Virus record (IMG/VR): IMGVR_UViG_2713896769_000015
Origin: a virus
Taxonomy: Duplodnaviria > Heunggongvirae > Uroviricota > Caudoviricetes
DNA: 17,127 bases
Strand: one strand, 5' to 3'
Part shown: positions 2,558 through 16,630 of the stretch, piece by piece
Position numbering within the stretch: the stretch's first letter is position 1
How the letters are laid out: the number at the start of each line of letters is the position of its first letter
Position numbers and translations under genes: made by a program
The notes under the pieces: model-generated
What the model saw: the letters and a program-made list of their open reading frames with translations, nothing else
Database searches by the model: none
What the model was told of the DNA's origin: nothing

Positions 2558-5111
<2,554 letters not shown>

Positions 5112-5119
5112 CCACTACA

Positions 5120-5437
5120 GCCCTGCGTAACCATCGTGGTAATCAGGCCTGACAGTGCCGGGATCGCACTCATCGCCGGATAAATCCGGCTTTCCATCCA
5201 CGAATCCAGCTCTGAATCCGGCACCTGAGCAGGCAGGAAAACTTCAATATGCAGCTCCGCCTGCCAGGTATCGCTGTCCAGCGCTTCGCCCGTGTATTCA
5301 GCGCCGGTGAGATAAACAGCAATTGCCGGAAAATCCGCCTCATCAAAAACAGCGGGGCGACCATCAAACAGCGTCGCCCCGTGTTCATGCTGCTCGAGTG
5401 CATCCAGCACTGCAGCACGGATATCAGTATGTTTCAT
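5120..5437 (-). pseudogene. U: Tail terminator gene U (lambda gpU-like), 5' part truncated by the IS insertion
   Basis: MKHTDIRAAVLDALEQHEHGATLFDGRPAVFDEADFPAIAVYLTGAEYTGEALDSDTWQAELHIEVFLPAQVPDSELDSWMESRIYPAMSAIPALSGLITTMVTQG matches lambda gpU up to residue 106. The remaining 12 residues of track ORF 5081-5437 ([12 protein letters not shown]) are encoded by the IS right end. Confidence 0.85.
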
Positions 5438-6795: not shown

Positions 6796-7824
6796 TTATT
6801 TCACCTGTACCACCACAAACTCATCCGGGTCCGGCAACACCATCAGCGGCGCGGACTGCGTCATGGTAAATTCACGGGCGGGATCCCCTACCGTCAGCCA
6901 GTGTTTCGGATAACGGGAAGAGGCCACCACACCTTCGGACAACGCCTGCGCATCCTGAATGGCACCATAGCAACGAATGCCCTCTGCTGCCGTATTCCCC
7001 AGGACCAGCGAGCCCTCAGGCAGATAACGTTTTTCGGTACCGTCCTCTGCCACATAAGACGTTTTTGCCACCACAATGGCCAGATCGCCGTAATACCCTT
7101 TGAAGGACACCACCGCGCCCAGGTCTTTCACCGCTGTTTCGAGTTGCGAATTAGAGCCGCGACGGGTATCCAGTTTTTCGCGGAACAATTTAAAGCCATT
7201 CAGCAGACGCCAGACGGTACCGTCCATAATGGCAATATTCACAAGACCGCTGGCCTGGTCGCAGTAGAGGTCAAGATCATGTGTAGGATCGAACGTGTCA
7301 CGATCCTGTTTTGACCACTCCTTACCACTACCCTGAGTGATGTTATTCTTCGTCGACCTGCCAAAATCGACCTCAATTTTCTCGAACTGGTCTCCTTCCA
7401 TCGTATATTTGCCATACAGCACAGCATTTACCGCCTGCATTTCTTCCACCTGGACAATGGCGTGCTCTTCCTGTTTGAGGTTATCAGTGATGATACGCAG
7501 ACGACGGTAGGCCGGGTCGTTCAGCTGAGCCGGATCTTCACCGGGAAGACGCTCAACCGCCTGCTGGTAATTAAATTCGTGTTTCGGCTTGACGTAGCCC
7601 GGACGTAACACGCGGGTTTCACCACCACGATGACGCAGCACTTTTCCTTCAACAACCGGGGAAACATAGGCCGCCACCGGCGTTTTTCCGGTAATTTTGT
7701 CCAGCATCACCTCTTCGGTATGGAAATTCACCGTACGGCGGAAAAACAGCTCCAGAAACAGCGCACGAAATTTCACTTTTTGTTCGGTATAACCGAGTAA
7801 CTGGCGGGTCGTAAACAATCCCAT
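6796..7824 (-). CDS. E: Major capsid protein (lambda gpE-like)
   Basis: 342 aa with blocks KPKHEF, NITQGSGKEWSK, DTRRGSNSQLETAVKDLG and YPKHWLTVGDPAREFTMTQSAPLM shared with lambda gpE. SD aaggaa precedes the ATG at 7822-7824. Confidence 0.95.
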   Translation of the reverse strand: MGLFTTRQLLGYTEQKVKFRALFLELFFRRTVNFHTEEVMLDKITGKTPVAAYVSPVVEGKVLRHRGGETRVLRPGYVKPKHEFNYQQAVERLPGEDPAQLNDPAYRRLRIITDNLKQEEHAIVQVEEMQAVNAVLYGKYTMEGDQFEKIEVDFGRSTKNNITQGSGKEWSKQDRDTFDPTHDLDLYCDQASGLVNIAIMDGTVWRLLNGFKLFREKLDTRRGSNSQLETAVKDLGAVVSFKGYYGDLAIVVAKTSYVAEDGTEKRYLPEGSLVLGNTAAEGIRCYGAIQDAQALSEGVVASSRYPKHWLTVGDPAREFTMTQSAPLMVLPDPDEFVVVQVK

Positions 7825-7852
7825 AAATCAGTTCCTTTCATTCAGAAATCAG

Positions 7853-7874
7853 TCAGGCCACCGCGGTGGCCTGA
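7853..7874. other. Perfect 22-bp palindrome in the D-E intergenic spacer
   Basis: tcaggccaccgcggtggcctga equals its own reverse complement. It lies between the D stop (7882-7884) and the E start (7824) and has no adjacent U-tract. Confidence 0.6.
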
Positions 7875-7881
7875 TAACGTG

Positions 7882-8229
7882 TTACGGCAGCGCCGCGTGA
7901 CTCAGGGCACTGCCGGCAAAGGCGTTGGCCTTTTTGTGTTCATCCACACTTTCAGGCCAGCGGATTGCCTCCGTCGCAAAGGTCCCCGACTTGTAATAGG
8001 TCAGCGCCGTCTCTGTGCCTTCAAGCGGCAGTACCAGTATGCCAACCGCACTACCGGCTTTTTGTCCGTCCCAGACCACCAGTTTCCCGGTTGCCTCATC
8101 CAGCATCAGGGGCGTCAGTGCCGGTGTTGCCGAGGAAATCCCGCTGCTGCCTGTGGCGGTATGAGCCGGATCATTACCGGCAAAAATACGTACTTCCGCA
8201 CGCTGTTCAGTGATAGTTTTCGTCACCAT
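7882..8229 (-). CDS. D: Head decoration protein (lambda gpD-like)
   Basis: 115 aa, ...DPAHTATGSSGISSATPALTPLMLDEATGKLVVWDGQKAGSAVGILV...YYKSGTF...AFAG..., matching lambda gpD blocks. Strong SD caGGAGGt before the ATG at 8227-8229. Confidence 0.9.
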   Translation of the reverse strand: MVTKTITEQRAEVRIFAGNDPAHTATGSSGISSATPALTPLMLDEATGKLVVWDGQKAGSAVGILVLPLEGTETALTYYKSGTFATEAIRWPESVDEHKKANAFAGSALSHAALP

Positions 8230-8265
8230 ATTGTAAAAACCTCCTGTTGATGGTCAGCACTGGCT

Positions 8266-9771
8266 TCATGGCATGGCCATGAGCATTTTCACGTCCGCAT
8301 CACCGTCTGCTGACGTCTGTGGCACGCCACCCTGTACCGCTGCCGGTGAATGGTTCGCCATGATGCGTTCAAACATGGCGGTTGTGGATGCAGAGACCGG
8401 TTCTGCCTTACCTGATCCCGCAGCCAGCACAGCCCGGGCGCTCTCCACAGTCATTCCCGGGCAGGCAGCCAGCTGTTCAGCCTGCGCCTCAGCCCCTTTT
8501 GCCTCATCCAGTGCCATGATCTGATCACGGAGTGAGGGTCCGGCATCCGCCTGCGGTGAAGCAGCCAGGATCGGGCGGGCTTTTTCCACCGTCATCTCCG
8601 GCATCGCCGCCAGCGTTGCCGCCAGTTGTTCACGACCTTTCGCTTCTTCACACGCCATAATGCGATCGGCTTCACTCTGCGCGGATGCCACCGGCTGCTG
8701 TGGTGCCGCCGCGGCCAGAATCGCCCGGGCCTGTTCAACGCTCATGCCCTGTTGTCCTGCCAGCATCGTGGCAAGCTGTTCACGTCCTTTCGCTTCCTGG
8801 CATGTCAGGATCCCCATCACTCGCTGGTTCTCCTGCGCGGCGGCTTCCGTTGCAGTTAATTGCGGCATAGTGCCTCCTCTGACATTACTGTTCAGCGCCG
8901 TGGCCATCACACTGATGGCATCCGACGCATTGATTAATTCATCCGCCAGCCCGGCCTCAATGCCGGACTGACCTTCAAAAACGGCGGCCTCTGTTCCCGT
9001 GACAGCATCAACAGACAGACCGGTATACATCGCTACTTTTTCAGCAAACATCCGGCGCGCCGCATCAATGCGCTGTTGCATGTCCTGGCGAACCTCTGCC
9101 GGCAACGCTTCAAACTGATTGCCATCCACCTTGTGCGCCCCTGAGTAAATCAGCGTGATATCAACACCGGCCTGCGCCAGATGACCGGCATAGCTGACAT
9201 GGCTCATCATCACGCCAATGGAGCCGATACGGGATGTCTGGGTAACCAGCCGTCGGGAGCAGGCCGACGCCAGCAGCATGGCTGCAGAGCAGGCCGTGTC
9301 ATTGCACAGTGCCCAGACCGGCTTCTGCTGACGGAGGCGGTAAATCATGTCAGCGCAGTCAAACGCGCCGGCGGCCTGCCCGCCCGGACTGTCAATGTCC
9401 AGCAGTACGCCCCGCACCTGGCTATCCGCCATTGCCTGCTGAAGACAGGCGACAATGCCGTCATAGCCTGTCATTCCGGAAAATGGCCGCATACCCCCCA
9501 GCCGGTGCACCAGCGTGCCGGTCACCGGCAGTACAGCAATACCGTTCACCACCCGGTAAACACGGGCCGGTCGTTTACCTCCGGCCATGTACTCGTCCGT
9601 TTCAGCCAGCATTCCGGGAGCATCAAACTGTACCTGCTGTTGTGGTACCGAAAGACTTGATGCCCCCATCTCGCGCCCGAGCGCGCAAAAGAAAACCCGC
9701 GCATAGGCGGGCTCCAGAAGCAGCGGTTCATTGAATGCTGCGGCAATAATGTGTGAAAGATTACGTCTCAC
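8266..9771 (-). CDS. C: Head maturation protease / minor capsid protein C with C-terminal scaffold (Nu3-like) region; S49 peptidase family
   Basis: 501 aa, GTG start overlapping the end of B. Blocks AFNEPLLLEPAYARVFFCAL, NGIAVLPVTGTLV, SGMTGYDGI, KPVWALCNDTACSAAMLLASACSRRLVTQTSRIGSIGVMM and TLIYSGAHKVDGN match lambda gpC. The C-terminal third is low-complexity scaffold-like sequence with tandem repeats. Confidence 0.9.
   Translation of the reverse strand: MRRNLSHIIAAAFNEPLLLEPAYARVFFCALGREMGASSLSVPQQQVQFDAPGMLAETDEYMAGGKRPARVYRVVNGIAVLPVTGTLVHRLGGMRPFSGMTGYDGIVACLQQAMADSQVRGVLLDIDSPGGQAAGAFDCADMIYRLRQQKPVWALCNDTACSAAMLLASACSRRLVTQTSRIGSIGVMMSHVSYAGHLAQAGVDITLIYSGAHKVDGNQFEALPAEVRQDMQQRIDAARRMFAEKVAMYTGLSVDAVTGTEAAVFEGQSGIEAGLADELINASDAISVMATALNSNVRGGTMPQLTATEAAAQENQRVMGILTCQEAKGREQLATMLAGQQGMSVEQARAILAAAAPQQPVASAQSEADRIMACEEAKGREQLAATLAAMPEMTVEKARPILAASPQADAGPSLRDQIMALDEAKGAEAQAEQLAACPGMTVESARAVLAAGSGKAEPVSASTTAMFERIMANHSPAAVQGGVPQTSADGDADVKMLMAMP
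8362..8817 (-). repeat. Three tandem, diverged repeats of about 47-52 codons inside the 3' scaffold-encoding part of C
   Basis: Protein repeats begin at residues 319, 372 and 419 of the 501-aa ORF: MGILTCQEAKGREQLATMLAGQQGMSVEQARAILAAA..., MACEEAKGREQLAATLAAMPEMTVEKARPILAAS..., MALDEAKGAEAQAEQLAACPGMTVESARAVLAAG.... At DNA level, gccagttgttcacgacctttcgcttc (about 8623-8648) and gcaagctgttcacgtcctttcgcttc (about 8771-8796) are visibly related. Confidence 0.7.
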
Positions 9772-11353
9772 GTGGTGTTGTCTCCTCTTCCGGCCTGCGA
9801 CTCTCCGCTATCTGCTGCTCATACGCCTGCGCTATCCACACCGGACGTGAGAGTCCGGCTTTTTGTCGCTCAGCAGATTCCCTGACCTGCTGGCGGAAAA
9901 TGTCCTGATAATCCTCGCCCATCAGCGCCAGCTCTTTCTCATACGTGCTCAGTCCGGCCTCAATGCGCATCACTGATTCCTGGACTTCCTTGAGCCCGTC
10001 AATGGCCATTCTTCCGGCTCCAATCCACTCAGCCCGTGACCAGGCTGATCGCGCCTGATAAAAATCAAAACGCGCCCGTGGCGGACGAATAATCCCCCGA
10101 AGAAGTGCCTCTTCCAGCCAGCAGGAAAACATCTGCGTGGCCAGCCGGGACGCAATAAATTTTCGTCGTCCCATAAAATAGCGCCACGACTCATTGGCGG
10201 AGGCGCGGGCACTTGAATAACTGACCTTCGAGTAATCCCGGGACAACTGTTCGTAGGAAACGCCAAGACCGGCGGCGATATACCGCAGCAGCGCCTGTTC
10301 AAGCGCCGAAAATCCATTGTCTGAATCCTGCGCAGTCTGCAGTTTCAGATCATCACCGGGGAAAAGGTGCGGAATTTTGACACCGCCCAGCGTCACGTTA
10401 TTCGTGTCATACCAGCTGGAGAACTTCTCCAGAATATTAATAAGCGGATTATCCTTCTGCCCCTGCGGCGCACCGGCGATATATTCAAAGGCCTTTTCGG
10501 TATCAAGTTCACTTTCAATCGTCGCTGCATACATGGCTTTCACAATGGCCGACTGAAGCTGTGTTGCCTGCAGGGAATCCAGCATCTTCAGCCGTTCCAT
10601 GACGCTGTAAAACTGATTAGCCCCACGGGTCTGCCCGTCCTCCACCGGCTCGAAAATATGCAGCATGGCCGGACGCCCGGTGGGTAGTTCACGCGGGATC
10701 CGTTCCCATCGTCCACTACCAGAGAACGGAAAATCATCCTCACAGATATGGTACGCAACGGCACGGCCATATCGATCGACCTCCACCCCGGCCCGCAGAA
10801 AACGGTTCCCCATACCGTGTCCTGGCGTGTCCACCCGTTTCGGACTCACGGCTTTAAAACGCGTACGAAACAGTTGCGTGCTCTCCGTATCCCAGACCGG
10901 CTGCACAAAGATTTCGCCGTTAAACGCATGAACGCCCACACCTTCACGGATAAATTCCGTAAACGTGCGTTTCCCTTCCACGTCGATCTCGCCAGACATC
11001 CCTTCGGCGTATTCCGACCAGGCCGCCTCCACCTCATCGACAAAACTTTTTGCTGCAGTCTCCCGCATCCCCAGCCAGCGCCAGTTCGGACGGTAGCTGA
11101 TCAGAAACATATGCCCGACAATATGATCCTTATGCAGTGCCACCGCATTGGCCGCTATCCCGTTATTGCGCACCAGATCATCTGCACGGGCATTGCCCAG
11201 ACGCAACGCGGGCAACAGGGCCGCATCGGCACTCTGCGCCGGTGGCAACCACTCCGCCATTTGCCCGCCAAATCCTGCACCGCCCCCGTTGTAGCTGAGG
11301 CTCTCCCGAAGCGGAACACCGTTCACATCAATCAGGACAGGCGTTCGTTTCAT
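9761..11353 (-). CDS. B: Portal protein (lambda gpB-like)
   Basis: 530 aa; blocks GANQFYSVMERLKMLDSLQATQLQSAIVKAMYAATIESELD and GVSYEQLSRDYSKVSYSSARASANESW plus N-terminal SLSYNGGGAGFGGQ match lambda gpB. Start overlaps the W stop. Confidence 0.95.
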   Translation of the reverse strand: MKRTPVLIDVNGVPLRESLSYNGGGAGFGGQMAEWLPPAQSADAALLPALRLGNARADDLVRNNGIAANAVALHKDHIVGHMFLISYRPNWRWLGMRETAAKSFVDEVEAAWSEYAEGMSGEIDVEGKRTFTEFIREGVGVHAFNGEIFVQPVWDTESTQLFRTRFKAVSPKRVDTPGHGMGNRFLRAGVEVDRYGRAVAYHICEDDFPFSGSGRWERIPRELPTGRPAMLHIFEPVEDGQTRGANQFYSVMERLKMLDSLQATQLQSAIVKAMYAATIESELDTEKAFEYIAGAPQGQKDNPLINILEKFSSWYDTNNVTLGGVKIPHLFPGDDLKLQTAQDSDNGFSALEQALLRYIAAGLGVSYEQLSRDYSKVSYSSARASANESWRYFMGRRKFIASRLATQMFSCWLEEALLRGIIRPPRARFDFYQARSAWSRAEWIGAGRMAIDGLKEVQESVMRIEAGLSTYEKELALMGEDYQDIFRQQVRESAERQKAGLSRPVWIAQAYEQQIAESRRPEEETTPRET

Positions 11354-11556
11354 AACCTCACTCCCAGCGGACGACGGCGGCGGCTTGTTGTCCCCAGCAC
11401 TGACTCCGCATCATTGATCGCCCGGTTAAGATCATCCAGAGAGGCCGCCGTATATTCAATTCTTCGTCCATCTTTCTGGACAGACACCACCCGTTTACCG
11501 GTTAATAAATCAAGGCGCGCCTGACGCAGCGCCTGCAGTTCAGCGACTGTAACCAT
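11350..11556 (-). CDS. W: Head-tail joining protein (lambda gpW-like)
   Basis: 68 aa, MVTVAELQALRQARLDLLTGKRVVSVQKDGRRIEYTAASLDDLNRAINDAE... parallels lambda gpW (…KRVATVQKDGRRVEFTA…). Overlaps the A stop and the B start. Confidence 0.9.
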   Translation of the reverse strand: MVTVAELQALRQARLDLLTGKRVVSVQKDGRRIEYTAASLDDLNRAINDAESVLGTTSRRRRPLGVRL

Positions 11557-13468
11557 TCACTCCTCCGGACAGCTTCGCTGCCAGTTCTTTCAGGGTTGGC
11601 CGGGTCGTCTCTTCTTCCCGGGATTTTGCCAGTACAGCCAGATCAAGCTGCCAGCGTTGCACGGACACACGTAATGCCGCGTAGGCATACACCAGGCAGT
11701 CCAGCGCTTCGTTACGCCGCTTTTTGTTATCCCACAGCAGACGCATCTTTCCTTTTTCCCACTTCTCCACCAGCTCTTCCGCCACCAGTTGCTGCGCCTC
11801 TGTCTGCGAAAAAATCTCCGGATCATCAGGAAAACGGATGGCATACGACGTGGCTTCATCCGCAGGCGAGGGATCGGCTTTCATACGGGCATAGAGAATT
11901 TCTTTTGCGGTGTCCGTTCCCACTTCACACAGATACACGCCCCGCTGATTGCGGGTTTTTGGCATGGTGATCACCGGCTTGCCATAGACAGATGCGCCTT
12001 TTACCGGCAGCACCCGGAAAACACCGTGTTTTTTTGATCTCTGATAAACAATTTCACCATCGATCCCCCCGGTGTCCCAGCAGACACGGGAAATAGTCAT
12101 TTCGGTGCCATCCGCATGGCGGTATTTTTTGTTGATCGCCGCATCCACACGTAACAGCGTCTCTTCCTCATCAGGACGCCCCATAATGATGATTTTATCC
12201 ACCAGAAAGGCTTCCTCTCCCGGAGCCCATCCCCAGACATACATCTCAAAACGGTTTCGCTGCGAGTCAATGCCCGCCGTCAGATAAACCACCCGGGCAG
12301 GCACCGCCGCCGTGTAACGCACCACCTTATCCATCAGTACCTGGTGATCGAGTTTTTCGCCCACGGCCTCTTCCCAGGTCTCGCCCAGCGTGGTGTTCAC
12401 AAAGGTTTTCAGGCCGTTGGGATCTTTCAGTGCATCCAGCCAGTCATAGACAATCTGTACCCAGGTGGTGAACGGACTGTACGCCGTCCAGATATGGAAC
12501 GTGATGGAGCGCGGCGGCGGAATTTCATCACCCCGGGCGCTGAAAAACGTCAGACCGTCACGGGTCCACATGCCCGTGTTTTCACAGATCCACCGCCCGT
12601 TGCTCTGGTCCAGTTCAGACTGATGGATCACGCAGCCATGATGTTCACAGAGGTAGAAAACACTTTCAGGGCTGTCCTTCTCCCATTTAAGCCCAAAAGG
12701 CGTGGACTCATCGCCAAATTTCAGATACTGCTCCTCCCCACAGTGCGGGCAGGGCACATAAAAACGCATAAAATGCGCCGACTCGTTAGCGGCTTTTTCG
12801 ATCTGGCAGGTGCCTTTGATTTTAGGCGTCGAGCCGCGAATGGATTTTGGCCACACCGACCCCTCAATACGCTTATCCCCCAGCAGGGTTGGCGAGCCCT
12901 CTTTTTCGACATCCGGCTCGAACGAGGAAAGTTCGTCATAGCAGACCACGTCCACGGATTTTTCACGGTAGTTTTTGGCGGCAGCGCCGCCCAGGCACCA
13001 GAAACCGACGCCCGATGAAAAGCGTTTCAGCGTGAGAGTATTGTCACGATGTTTACGACCCAGCCATGGGGAAAGGTCTTTCAGGCATGGCACGTTCCGA
13101 ATCGTCGCCTCCACGTGAGACTTCATAAAATCTTCAGCGGCAGAATCCGTGGGCTGAAAAAGCAGACTGTTTCGGGATTTATGCTCAATAAAATACCCGA
13201 CCACCCCCAGCAACATCTTTGTATAGCCAACACGGGCAGATTTAATCAGATTAACAGTGCGGATCTGATCATTCCCCATGCTGTTCATGATGGCGATCTG
13301 GAATGGCAGCGTTTTCCATTCGCCCTCACCATATGAAGATTCTTTAGGCAGATAATAATTTTGATCAGCCCATTCAACTGGCGTCACCGGCAATGCCCTT
13401 ATCAGGGGCTGTAATGCAGTTGTGACAGCGCTCATCATATTATTCAGTTGTTGCTCTGATATATTCAT
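11540..13468 (-). CDS. A: Terminase large subunit (lambda gpA-like)
   Basis: Preferred start MNISEQQLNN... at 13466-13468, which aligns with the lambda gpA N-terminus; the track ORF starts 19 codons upstream at 13525. Blocks KSARVGYTKMLLGV, GSVWPKSIRGSTPK, FMRFYVPCPHCGEEQYLKFGD, VCWDTGGID and KRRNEALDCLVYAYAALR match lambda gpA. 642 aa. Confidence 0.95.
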   Translation of the reverse strand: MNISEQQLNNMMSAVTTALQPLIRALPVTPVEWADQNYYLPKESSYGEGEWKTLPFQIAIMNSMGNDQIRTVNLIKSARVGYTKMLLGVVGYFIEHKSRNSLLFQPTDSAAEDFMKSHVEATIRNVPCLKDLSPWLGRKHRDNTLTLKRFSSGVGFWCLGGAAAKNYREKSVDVVCYDELSSFEPDVEKEGSPTLLGDKRIEGSVWPKSIRGSTPKIKGTCQIEKAANESAHFMRFYVPCPHCGEEQYLKFGDESTPFGLKWEKDSPESVFYLCEHHGCVIHQSELDQSNGRWICENTGMWTRDGLTFFSARGDEIPPPRSITFHIWTAYSPFTTWVQIVYDWLDALKDPNGLKTFVNTTLGETWEEAVGEKLDHQVLMDKVVRYTAAVPARVVYLTAGIDSQRNRFEMYVWGWAPGEEAFLVDKIIIMGRPDEEETLLRVDAAINKKYRHADGTEMTISRVCWDTGGIDGEIVYQRSKKHGVFRVLPVKGASVYGKPVITMPKTRNQRGVYLCEVGTDTAKEILYARMKADPSPADEATSYAIRFPDDPEIFSQTEAQQLVAEELVEKWEKGKMRLLWDNKKRRNEALDCLVYAYAALRVSVQRWQLDLAVLAKSREEETTRPTLKELAAKLSGGVNGYSR

Positions 13469-13949
13469 CAAGTAAATCCGGTAATTTATCCCCTGCCCGC
13501 GCACACTGATTTGCCCCCTTAGCAATAAGGGTTTTCAGATGGTCAAGATGGCGCGGTGTTAAATCAGGAAACTGTCGCTGCATGGATAAAGGGATGGAAT
13601 CAAGCGTACTGGATAACGCCATTGCCAGCTTACTGAGGGCAAAAATACAGAACCCGGTGTCAATCAGTTTTCCTTTTGACACCTCATTTTTTAACTGCTG
13701 TGTAACAGCCTGTTCTGCTGTCAGTTCCCATCTGGCAATAAGCAATTTTTCCTCATAGTCGTCTTCGCTATCGCCATCAGGCACATCGTTTTTACTTCTT
13801 CTCAGATACGATATGTAAAAATCGCGCCAGGCATCCAGATCCAGTTGCCCTCGCTTATTCGAGACCGGGGCACCCGGTAATTTCTGCAATCTGCGAAGCT
13901 GGCGATCGGTCAGACTTAAATGCCTGGCAACTTCAGTCTGCGTAGCCAC
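13440..13949 (-). CDS. Nu1: Terminase small subunit (Nu1 / phage 21 gp1-like, N-terminal HTH)
   Basis: 169 aa, GTG start at 13947-13949 preceded by gcGAGGtgagga. N-terminal HTH-like EVARHLSLTDRQLRRLQ and a C-terminal part overlapping the start of A by 29 nt. Location immediately downstream of cos, and same size and architecture as lambda Nu1, but the sequence is clearly diverged from lambda. Confidence 0.8.
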   Translation of the reverse strand: MATQTEVARHLSLTDRQLRRLQKLPGAPVSNKRGQLDLDAWRDFYISYLRRSKNDVPDGDSEDDYEEKLLIARWELTAEQAVTQQLKNEVSKGKLIDTGFCIFALSKLAMALSSTLDSIPLSMQRQFPDLTPRHLDHLKTLIAKGANQCARAGDKLPDLLDEYIRATTE

Positions 13950-14725: not shown

Positions 14726-15274
14726 TCAGGCTTGAATACCTTTATCGAATCCCGGTAATAAAAACTGTCCCTGTCTCTCCAGACGTTCCAGCTTTGCAAG
14801 CAATTGAGGTTTTTTCGTTCTCCCCCAGCGATTGAGCAGACGGCCTGACATGCTGGCGACATCCTTCTCTTTCATGTACTCCAGCATTACGGCGTTACGT
14901 TCTGCTTCATAACTTTCGCTGTACTTACGGAGTTCTGCTGACATCCAGTTAAACGCATTGATATAGGCTTCTTTAACAGCATCGGCTTTTGCCCCGTTAA
15001 ATCCCATAACCAGCATAACGAAGCCACTAAAGTCCATGCGGTAGTAAATCTGTTTCTTGTCAAAAATACCTAAGTCATTGATTTTCTCGACGGCCCCAAA
15101 ATGGGTTGTCGAGAATTCCTCAGAACATCTCAAACATTTAATAGCCCTAATCACATGCTGATGGCGTTTACCAAATGCCCTGGCAATCTGGAAGGTGTCA
15201 GTTACCGGTTGACCTTCTGCTGCGGTAACTAACTGGCGAAAGTCGAAGTCATGATTCGCAATTAATTCATTCAT
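14726..15274 (-). CDS. rha: Phage regulatory protein Rha family (pRha domain)
   Basis: MNELIANHDFDFRQLVTAAEGQPVTDTFQIARAFGKRHQHVIRAIKCL...YYRMDFSGFVMLVMGFNGAKADAVKEAYINAFNWM... fits the pRha pattern (GKRH-[DQ]-x-V-[LI]-R, LVMGFxGxKA, FKEAYI). Start taken at ATG 15272-15274; the track ORF extends to a GTG at 15343. Confidence 0.7.
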   Translation of the reverse strand: MNELIANHDFDFRQLVTAAEGQPVTDTFQIARAFGKRHQHVIRAIKCLRCSEEFSTTHFGAVEKINDLGIFDKKQIYYRMDFSGFVMLVMGFNGAKADAVKEAYINAFNWMSAELRKYSESYEAERNAVMLEYMKEKDVASMSGRLLNRWGRTKKPQLLAKLERLERQGQFLLPGFDKGIQA

Positions 15275-15424
15275 GGCGTTGCCTGCTTCTTTGAAATGAA
15301 CCTTTGCCGCACAGGAAACCAGCCCACCGAGGCTCGCCAGCACTAACTGGTATCCTCAAAGGCCCATTCCAAAGGGTCAGGTTCGGTGTTTATTGTGCGC
15401 TGCGGTGCGCGGTGAAATACCGGT

Positions 15425-15930: not shown

Positions 15931-16424
15931 TGTTGCCCCCACAAACAGACTTCACGCTCAATCTCGCGGCGAGTCATCAGCCCTTTCCATTGCTTACCGC
16001 CAGCGTATGTCCAGCGCCGTAGCTGATCACATGCGCCTTTGATATCGCCCTGGTTTATTTTGCGAAGAAGCGTCGATGTTCTGAAATTGCCAGCGCCCAC
16101 GTTGTAAACGAACGAGTAAAGAGCGCCGCGCGTTGTTTCCGGTATATCGACGTTGATGTACGGGTTAATTTGTCTGGCGACCGTGGCAAGGTCTTTATTC
16201 AGGAGGGCTTTGCATTCTGCTTCGGTATACGTTTTACCGGGCATGATGTCTTTTCCGGTGTGTCCGTGACATACAGTCCATACGCCAACGATATCTTTGT
16301 ATGGTATGTAGCTGACACCTTCCAGACCATCGTTACCACCTGGACCAGTGATGAGCACAGACGCTATGGCAACAGCCCCACCACCAATAGCAGCTGCAAC
16401 AGCCTTGCGTAATGACGGCGACAT
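15927..16424 (-). CDS. R: SAR endolysin (phage 21 R21-like lysozyme, GH24)
   Basis: 165 aa, [59 protein letters not shown]...: Gly/Ala-rich N-terminal signal-anchor-release segment followed by the E-x8-D-x5-T catalytic motif of T4-type lysozymes. Closely matches phage 21 R as I recall it. Confidence 0.9.
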
Positions 16425-16630
16425 TATTCACCTCTCGCAGCCTTACGCTTATCTTCTTTAATCTTGAAATAAAGATTTGTCAGATACGTCAGCAGGCCAA
16501 ACAGCAGACTTCCCAGCACACCTATTGCCACCCACTGGGACGGAGAGACTTTGTCCAGCAGCTGCAGTAACCAGTATCCCGTCCCCACCGCTGACGTGGT
16601 GTATGACACACCTGTTGTGATTTTTTCCAT
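16424..16630 (-). CDS. S: Class II holin / pinholin (phage 21 S21-like)
   Basis: 68 aa, [68 protein letters not shown]: two transmembrane segments and a basic C-terminus, near-collinear with S21. SD ggaga about 9 nt upstream. Stop overlaps the R start. Confidence 0.85.

Follow-up and report, generated by a model that had tools for sequence, protein, structure and literature searches.

The closest described relative of the gene analyzed here is gene 5 of phage 21. The feature table of one phage 21 record (M81255) lists gene 5 together with a nested gene 6, which has its own putative ribosome-binding site, and marks within gene 6 three repeat_region features, the 'Tri1 box', 'Tri box' and 'Tri3 box', annotated 'function unknown; putative'. 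A second record (OL657228) names the products 'capsid protease/scaffolding protein' and a nested 'scaffolding protein', and the record of Gifsy-1 cites the UniProt name 'Head-tail preconnector protein GP5 [Contains: Scaffold protein GP6 ...]' (VG05_BPP21). We analyzed the corresponding gene in IMG/VR virus record IMGVR_UViG_2713896769_000015, a stretch of 17,127 nucleotides (nt), here called the window. Megablast against phage records showed the gene to be 98.7% identical to phage 21 gene 5 (M81255, OL657228) over 1506/1506 nt, and the same identity to a set of phage-21-like phages. We conclude, with a probability of roughly 0.9, that it is the phage-21-type allele of the lambdoid C/Nu3 pair, in which one frame gives two products and an ancient triplication of the Tri modules has been retained.

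The differences from phage 21 gene 5 amount to 20 nt and seven amino acids (aa). Gene, length, internal ribosome-binding site, start at Met302 and the positions of the three boxes are the same, and the neighboring genes follow in the same order. In contrast to phage 21, the copy studied here belongs to a chromosomal prophage, and insertion sequences interrupt the tail module of that prophage. The original annotation of the phage 21 head genes and Tri boxes we take to be that of Smith & Feiss (Gene, 1993). The gene, its repeat units and its C-terminal tail are as follows.

8266..9771, minus strand: C homologue (phage 21 gene 5), S49 prohead protease plus scaffold domain; open reading frame (ORF) of 501 aa with a GTG start
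8698..8823, minus strand: repeat unit 1, aa 317-358, RVMGILTCQEAKGREQLATMLAGQQGMSVEQARAILAAAAPQ; found by matches to a hidden Markov model (HMM) of the unit; contains the Tri1 box (8801-8698)
8551..8670, minus strand: repeat unit 2, aa 368-407, ADRIMACEEAKGREQLAATLAAMPEMTVEKARPILAASPQ; unit-HMM matches and self-alignment; contains the Tri box (8661-8551)
8410..8529, minus strand: repeat unit 3, aa 415-454, RDQIMALDEAKGAEAQAEQLAACPGMTVESARAVLAAGSG; unit-HMM matches and self-alignment; contains the Tri3 box (8520-8407)
8269..8409, minus strand: C-terminal tail, aa 455-501, with a conserved F-[DE]-x-[FIL]-M motif (MFERIMAN), ending in LMAMP

The protease part is readily recognized. Pfam Peptidase_S49 (PF01343) matches aa 146-293 (E = 3.7e-35; 121.6 bits against a cut-off of 24.9), and phrog_53, 'head maturation protease', matches the 501-aa protein with E = 2e-228. 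In the Pfam search of this protein, Peptidase_S49 was the sole domain, and the scaffold tail had none.

That tail carries the repeat. Comparison of the protein with itself under BLOSUM62 gave three outstanding diagonals, at offsets of 50, 47 and 97 aa, with scores of 67, 57 and 54 in a 20-residue window; the next best score was 31. Local alignment yielded 63% identity between units 1 and 2 (24/38, score 106, z = 16), 47% between units 1 and 3 (21/45, score 87, z = 11) and 64% between units 2 and 3 (23/36, score 102, z = 15). In 2000 composition-preserving shuffles (means ∼26, standard deviation ∼5), the corresponding maxima were 61, 56 and 51. The pattern R-[IV]-M-x-x-x-E-A-K-G-R-E-x-L-A-x-x-L-A-x-x-P-G-M-T-V-E-x-A-R-x-[IV]-L-A-A recurs in register, and the tail is matched three times, in separate stretches, by each of three profiles built on single-copy proteins of the Nu3 type. 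These are phrog_8399 ('head scaffolding protein', match with E = 1.5e-35), phrog_8940 ('capsid assembly protein', match with E = 6e-31) and phrog_17040. These data confirm that the three tandem ∼40-aa units are real and homologous. The tail is Ala-rich, and its linkers and C-terminal end are of low complexity, which would suit the notion that the apparent repeat is a by-product of Ala/Gln/Glu-rich composition rather than homology. But shuffled sequences stay far below the real scores (maxima of 51-61 versus 87-106), an ordered motif returns in register, and independent single-copy profiles match three times; the shuffle test and the triple matches refute this notion, whose remaining probability is negligible.

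The limits of the units were set by an HMM made from the units themselves. The Tri boxes, mapped on the window protein, fall at aa 324-358, 371-407 and 418-455, and are thus the same three units. Linkers between them are 7-10 residues long and variable. The F-[DE]-x-[FIL]-M motif of the C-terminal tail resembles the opening residues of a unit. The repeat is detectable at the protein level only: Tandem Repeats Finder reported none in the DNA, and a DNA repeat search returned only imperfect families of 12-19 nt. A DNA family with ERIMA-type codons (D1) was seen at 8357, 8513 and 8654. Over cores of 32 codons the units share 57-68% of their nucleotides, with third positions agreeing in just 12-14 of the 32 codons, and the longest exact direct repeat among them is 11 nt.

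A preliminary description of the window, made from the sequence alone, had placed three tandem, diverged units at 8362-8817, in the Nu3-like scaffold part of the protease gene C, within its C-terminal third. Repeat and location were both borne out, the gene being a protease gene of the S49 family and of the lambda C type, and the limits proved exact: 8817 is the A of the Met319 ATG, and 8362 is the base preceding the Met471 ATG. Delimited by their methionines (Met319, Met372 and Met419), the units measure 53, 47 and 52 aa. All pairwise identities, at 47-64%, lie above the ∼40% that the description had taken as the lower bound for a self-alignment, and it was also right in giving the ORF 501 aa against 439 aa for lambda gpC, with its one copy. 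The triplication itself is already known, as we judge from the GenBank feature table. As a discovery it matters little, having been in GenBank since the early 1990s, in an allele that is among the commonest E. coli prophage genes.

The nested scaffold gene and its start

One frame would give two products with a common C-terminus, the 501-aa S49 prohead protease and a 200-aa scaffold that starts at Met302. Their common part would consist of the three ∼40-aa modules, each a predicted helix-loop-helix, joined by the short linkers and followed by a short conserved tail. Two features define the nested gene.

8266..8868, minus strand: nested in-frame scaffold gene (phage 21 gene 6, Nu3 analogue), 200 aa from Met302, beginning MPQLTATE; coding sequence in the phage 21 records, predicted start
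8873..8879, minus strand: Shine–Dalgarno (SD) sequence GAGGAGG of the nested gene, 5 nt before the ATG at 8868; encoded by conserved Gly-Gly codons

Pairing with the anti-SD sequence of 16S rRNA was scored for all 45 in-frame ATG, GTG and TTG codons, for which the gene-wide mean free energy (ΔG) was -3.7 kcal/mol. Met302 (ATG at 8868) had the strongest pairing of the 45 candidates, at -12.0 kcal/mol; the start of the full-length gene scored -9.1 kcal/mol. The equivalent of Met302 also has the strongest internal SD in lambda (codon 309, -10.8), in Gifsy-1 (codon 302) and in phi80 (codon 311), and ties for the strongest in a four-unit allele discussed below (codon 303). G299, G300 and M302 are invariant in the alignment with lambda, phi80 and Gifsy-1. 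A ribosome-binding site before Met302 is annotated in both M81255 and OL657228.

The preliminary description had suggested that the initial Met of each repeat could serve as an internal start, as for Nu3 in lambda. In its extended form, this model predicts a nested series of ever shorter scaffolds. Each unit, as delimited by that description, does open with an ATG (Met319, Met372, Met419), and AGGAG is found upstream of Met319 (-7.4 kcal/mol). However, this AGGAG lies 11-12 nt from the ATG, a poor spacing, and Met372, Met419 and Met471 are practically without anti-SD pairing (-2.4, +0.4 and +0.4 kcal/mol, respectively, versus the mean of -3.7). Moreover, many homologues have Leu (RIL, KIL, AIL, QLL) where units 2 and 3 open with Met here, and the one conserved strong site is that at Met302. 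Because Met302 has the sole strong and conserved SD, and because Leu occurs at the unit heads, a single nested scaffold is indicated and a ladder of products is highly improbable. Judged from the sequence, the scaffold is one 200-aa protein with all three units, and the leading Met of a unit fills a hydrophobic position in the helix and does not act as a start codon. Hence the idea of a nested in-frame scaffold holds, with phage 21 gene 6 as the example, but its start is upstream of all repeats; the SD-like sequences before the repeat-initial ATGs are weak or poorly spaced. That repeat number tunes scaffold length, as also proposed, is true in a trivial sense, in that the nested product, counted from the equivalent start, has 200 aa here versus 131 aa in lambda, with no effect shown for the size of the capsid.

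This analysis fixes the nested scaffold start, as predicted from SD strength and conservation, at Met302; for lambda Nu3 it favors, by extension, a start at codon 309 rather than codon 239. In RefSeq, lambda nu3 starts at codon 239 of C (positions 833-1438 of L003, which is from NC_001416; 201 aa; anti-SD ΔG -6.9). The strongest internal SD of the lambda gene, AGGAGG (-10.8), stands before codon 309, which corresponds to the start site of phage 21 gene 6 and would give a 131-aa Nu3. PHROGs holds both versions of Nu3, as profiles of 201 and 131 positions.

Copy number and age of the triplication

Lambda C (NC_001416, 4418-5737) encodes 439 aa with one unit; phi80 likewise has one unit, and Gifsy-1 of Salmonella (STM2605) has three. 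Since a first homologue search gave mostly truncated proteins from contig ends, copy numbers were recounted on complete genes from their loci. In IMG/VR, all 79 complete close relatives (protease part at least 98% identical) have three units. Among GTDB contigs, sampled at one genome per species, a phage-21-type clade has three units (protease part 69-100% identical; E. coli, Shigella, E. albertii, Trabulsiella, Providencia and Salmonella) and a lambda-type clade has one (58-66% identical). A search of 1.84 billion representative proteins with the unit profile found one unit in 52 of the 53 full-length proteins (at least 380 aa) among the best 150 matches, with a median of 51 residues after the unit. 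This predominance of single-unit proteins indicates that one copy is the ancestral and usual state. Counts for complete E. coli genomes were as follows.

Three-unit tail (phage 21 type): 1870/5426 genomes, 2922 places
One-unit tail (lambda type): 3222/5426 genomes, ∼4500 copies
Four-unit tail: 106/5426 genomes, ∼170 copies; 538-aa gene, on closed chromosomes

The count across homologous prophage C genes thus comes out as one for the lambda type, three for the phage 21 type and four in 106 E. coli genomes. The preliminary description had regarded three copies in lambda and its relatives as fatal to its view of the repeat. Lambda has a single copy, as the description had stated, but phage 21, Gifsy-1 and thousands of prophages share the three.

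We also considered how old the triplication is. Across E. coli, Salmonella, Trabulsiella and Providencia, units group by position, unit 1 with unit 1 and unit 2 with unit 2, and less cleanly for unit 3. As the units are orthologous by position, the triplication must be older than the split of the prophages of these four genera. Among 17 homologues with 45-93% identity, each unit contains invariant residues, and the linkers vary in length and sequence. Invariant residues in every unit argue that all three copies are maintained by selection. Third-codon positions compared between units are near random. An ancient triplication would thus have given rise to the phage 21/Gifsy-1 lineage, with the three copies kept since then under purifying selection.

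The preliminary description had raised the possibility that the array is a copy-number hotspot, subject to replication slippage or unequal recombination, which would make it differ between close prophages. Some variants do fit such activity. In the four-unit allele (for example at L148 598-2214, on the chromosome of E. coli STEC309; also L146 and P0028), units 2-4 are near-identical, with 30-34 of 36 aa shared mutually, 77-80% nucleotide identity and an exact repeat of 21 nt. These similarities suggest that the allele arose by a younger secondary duplication or by homogenization. In addition, one rare variant of the three-unit allele (P0020, on L147) has two units through an in-register fusion of units 1 and 2, with the junction SVEQAR|PILAAS, and four others (P0009, P0011, P0015, P0021) have partial deletions of unit 2. 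Yet the two-unit and deletion forms occur only on short contigs of draft assemblies, where real deletion and assembly artefact are not separable. Within the three-unit lineage, three units are present in each of the 79 complete close relatives, and the tail measures exactly 603 nt in 29/29 full-length matches sampled across the identity range in E. coli. The copies are only 57-68% identical in nucleotides, lack any exact repeat above 11 nt, drew no report from Tandem Repeats Finder, and are orthologous by position across genera. The divergence of the DNA copies is too great for slippage, an idea that finds no support in the three-unit allele, and we regard a currently active hotspot as very unlikely.

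Three further observations came from these searches. P0078 is a frameshifted copy of the four-unit allele. P0140 and P0228 are distant stand-alone scaffold-like proteins of 194-198 aa with two diverged copies of the module, which suggests independent duplications outside the phage 21 lineage. Finally, lambda-like C genes, mostly with an identical match score to the query, turned up on short, often low-coverage GTDB contigs (L095-L103, L121, L122, L127, L129-L132 and others) from assemblies labeled Kitasatospora, Shewanella, Pseudomonas, Neobacillus, Oceanobacillus, Leeuwenhoekiella, Chromatium, Enterococcus, an Akkermansia metagenome-assembled genome and others. These genes are most simply explained by contamination of the assemblies with lambda DNA.

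Genomic setting

The C homologue sits in the head operon between the portal gene (B) and the genes for decoration (D) and major capsid (E) proteins. Its neighbors are listed below.

11540-13525, minus strand: large terminase (gpA), domain match
11350-11556, minus strand: gpW, neighbor in lambda order
9761-11353, minus strand: lambda-type portal (Phage_portal_2), domain match
7882-8229, minus strand: gpD-type decoration protein (HDPD), domain match
6796-7824, minus strand: gpE-type major capsid protein (Phage_cap_E), domain match

FI, FII, Z and U come after the major capsid gene, on the minus strand, as in the lambda gene order. Head genes in lambda order, together with the S49 domain, identify the gene as C of a lambdoid prophage, in agreement with the preliminary description. 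Proteolytic removal of the scaffold and processing of the portal by the 501-aa product are predicted solely as features of its class.

A scan of 7800-9900 for promoters gave one promoter-like match, at chance level. The same interval contained five terminator matches, compared with a shuffle mean of 1.5, including a hairpin past the D-like gene. None of the terminator-like matches fell in the repeat region. The phage 21 genome record places two antisense 'CII binding sites' in gene 6, of which one falls inside Tri unit 2. These sites map to ∼8850-8863 and ∼8616-8629 on the plus strand of the window (from L002 2409-2422 and 2643-2656), were annotated purely on a match to ttgynnnnnnttgy, and coincide with no promoter-like site. 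Plus-strand ORFs antisense to the repeat (8273-8524, 8626-8859 and 8660-8971) were dismissed as by-products of a GC- and Ala-rich frame, with no supporting family or feature.

Elsewhere in the prophage, a cluster of insertion sequences occupies ∼2600-5120, between U and V of the tail module, with plus-strand ORFs at 2675-3088, 3045-4196 and 4365-5111. An IS3-family element (orfA with HTH_Tnp_1, orfB with rve) is split there by an IS30-type transposase (383 aa, HTH_38 plus rve). U (5081-5437, minus strand) has 118 aa and matches positions 1-109 of a 130-position Pfam profile, its 3′ end apparently cut; the prophage is probably defective for tail assembly, to judge from these interruptions. The Rfam family isrC, an Hfq-binding small RNA, matches 2707-2829 on the plus strand (150 bits, E = 3e-37), in the orfA region of the IS3-family element, and is presumably part of the insertion sequence, not an independent small RNA gene. 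A lysis cassette comprises holin S21 (16424-16630), lysozyme and Rz. Between it and Nu1 lies a gene for a Rha-family regulator with an ORF11CD3 domain (205 aa, 14726-15343, minus strand); an otherwise similar prophage in strain E2865 has iss and ylcI-type genes in this interval instead.

Role of the module and comparison with known systems

In an AlphaFold model of the 200-aa tail, based on a 17-row alignment, the three modules are helical, with a predicted local distance difference test (pLDDT) score of 70-80, and the linkers and C-terminus are of low confidence or disordered. The predicted template modeling score was 0.27, as may be expected of beads on a string whose units are not packed against each other. 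Modeled singly, unit 2 forms one helix at residues 4-26, a loop and a second helix at 32-40 (pLDDT 79.5). The models suggest that the module is a helix-loop-helix and that the linkers are probably disordered. A sequence search of the tail against solved structures gave no match at E ≤ 1, and Foldseek of the whole-tail model against the PDB gave nothing below E = 2.8; fold searches returned generic hairpins only. Neither the sequence nor the fold searches detected a relationship, specific in the case of fold, between the module and gp8 of P22.

What might three modules do? We propose that each may make contact on its own, either with the inner face of the major capsid protein or with further scaffold chains, in a manner that would resemble the C-terminal helix-turn-helix of the P22 scaffold; a chain with three modules would then be trivalent. 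Since the protease has the same modules as the scaffold, it could be carried into the procapsid, and so co-packaged, through them. The module probably acts as a multivalent contact to capsid protein or other scaffold chains. A different assignment would make the modules self-association or portal-recruiting elements rather than capsid-protein sites, such that triplication alters oligomer geometry and not coat valency. For lambda, yeast two-hybrid data report interactions of Nu3 with itself, with C and with E, and a Nu3-B interaction is also reported (PMC3224144). The first two and the last would suit this assignment, and that with E counts against it. In P22, two scaffold domains are described as mediating multimerization and contacting the portal (PMC12005531). 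The module is the best-conserved part of Nu3-type proteins and could serve any such contact. On the other hand, the conserved tail after the modules (F-D-x-F-M ... LLM-x-P) could equally be the coat- or portal-binding piece. We consider self-association or portal recruitment possible, but the less probable of the two roles.

Beyond this, the module may be a self-contained docking unit for which lambdoid phages have settled on differing valencies per chain (one, three or four, and two in the distant stand-alone scaffolds), all of them building a lambda-like head. This extension is speculative, and we hold it to be rather doubtful. No description of the natural one-, three- and four-copy series was found in the searchable literature. 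If the extension is correct, the series would be a ready-made system for asking how procapsid nucleation and protease loading are controlled by the valency of the scaffold and the length of its tether. Alleles with one, three and four copies could help to dissect the way in which the capsid protein is engaged by Nu3-type scaffolds and by the fused protease.

Several points weigh against the conclusion that this is a two-product allele with three retained modules of the kind described. Translation from Met302 is deduced from sequence and from annotation by others, and GenBank's 'function unknown' for the Tri boxes still stands. The AlphaFold models are of moderate confidence, and only three rows made up the single-unit alignment. 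Lambda Nu3 is reportedly intrinsically disordered, according to the title of Medina et al. 2011; the predicted hairpins may form only on binding. The resemblance of the modeled Tri module to P22 is one of shape only.

Compared with lambda gpC and gpNu3, the gene shares an S49 protease with a C-terminal scaffold domain that is common to a nested in-frame product. Identity between the two protease parts is ∼65%, the lambda module (RIMGILNCEEAHGREEQARVLAETPGMTVKTARRILAAAPQ) is homologous, and the homologous C-terminal tail aligns to lambda ALDRLMQ...LLNTPV. The differences are that lambda has one module rather than three, and a gpC of 439 rather than 501 aa; that the low-complexity segment from the internal start to the module is longer in lambda; and that RefSeq starts nu3 at codon 239, whereas the Met302 equivalent is codon 309. 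In Gifsy-1 STM2605 and the Trabulsiella and Providencia homologues, three modules follow one another in the order seen here, and each resembles most the module that occupies its own position in the window protein. These homologues conserve the internal SD and Met; their protease domains are 69-83% identical, and their linkers and C-terminal extensions differ. In P22, a C-terminal helix-turn-helix of the scaffold docks on each coat subunit at the inner procapsid surface (PMC9965877). P22 gp8 and the scaffold described here have in common a short helix-loop-helix close to the C-terminal end of a chain that is otherwise mostly flexible, which in our case is a prediction. Each P22 gp8 chain, however, carries a single motif of this type, and no protease is fused to it.

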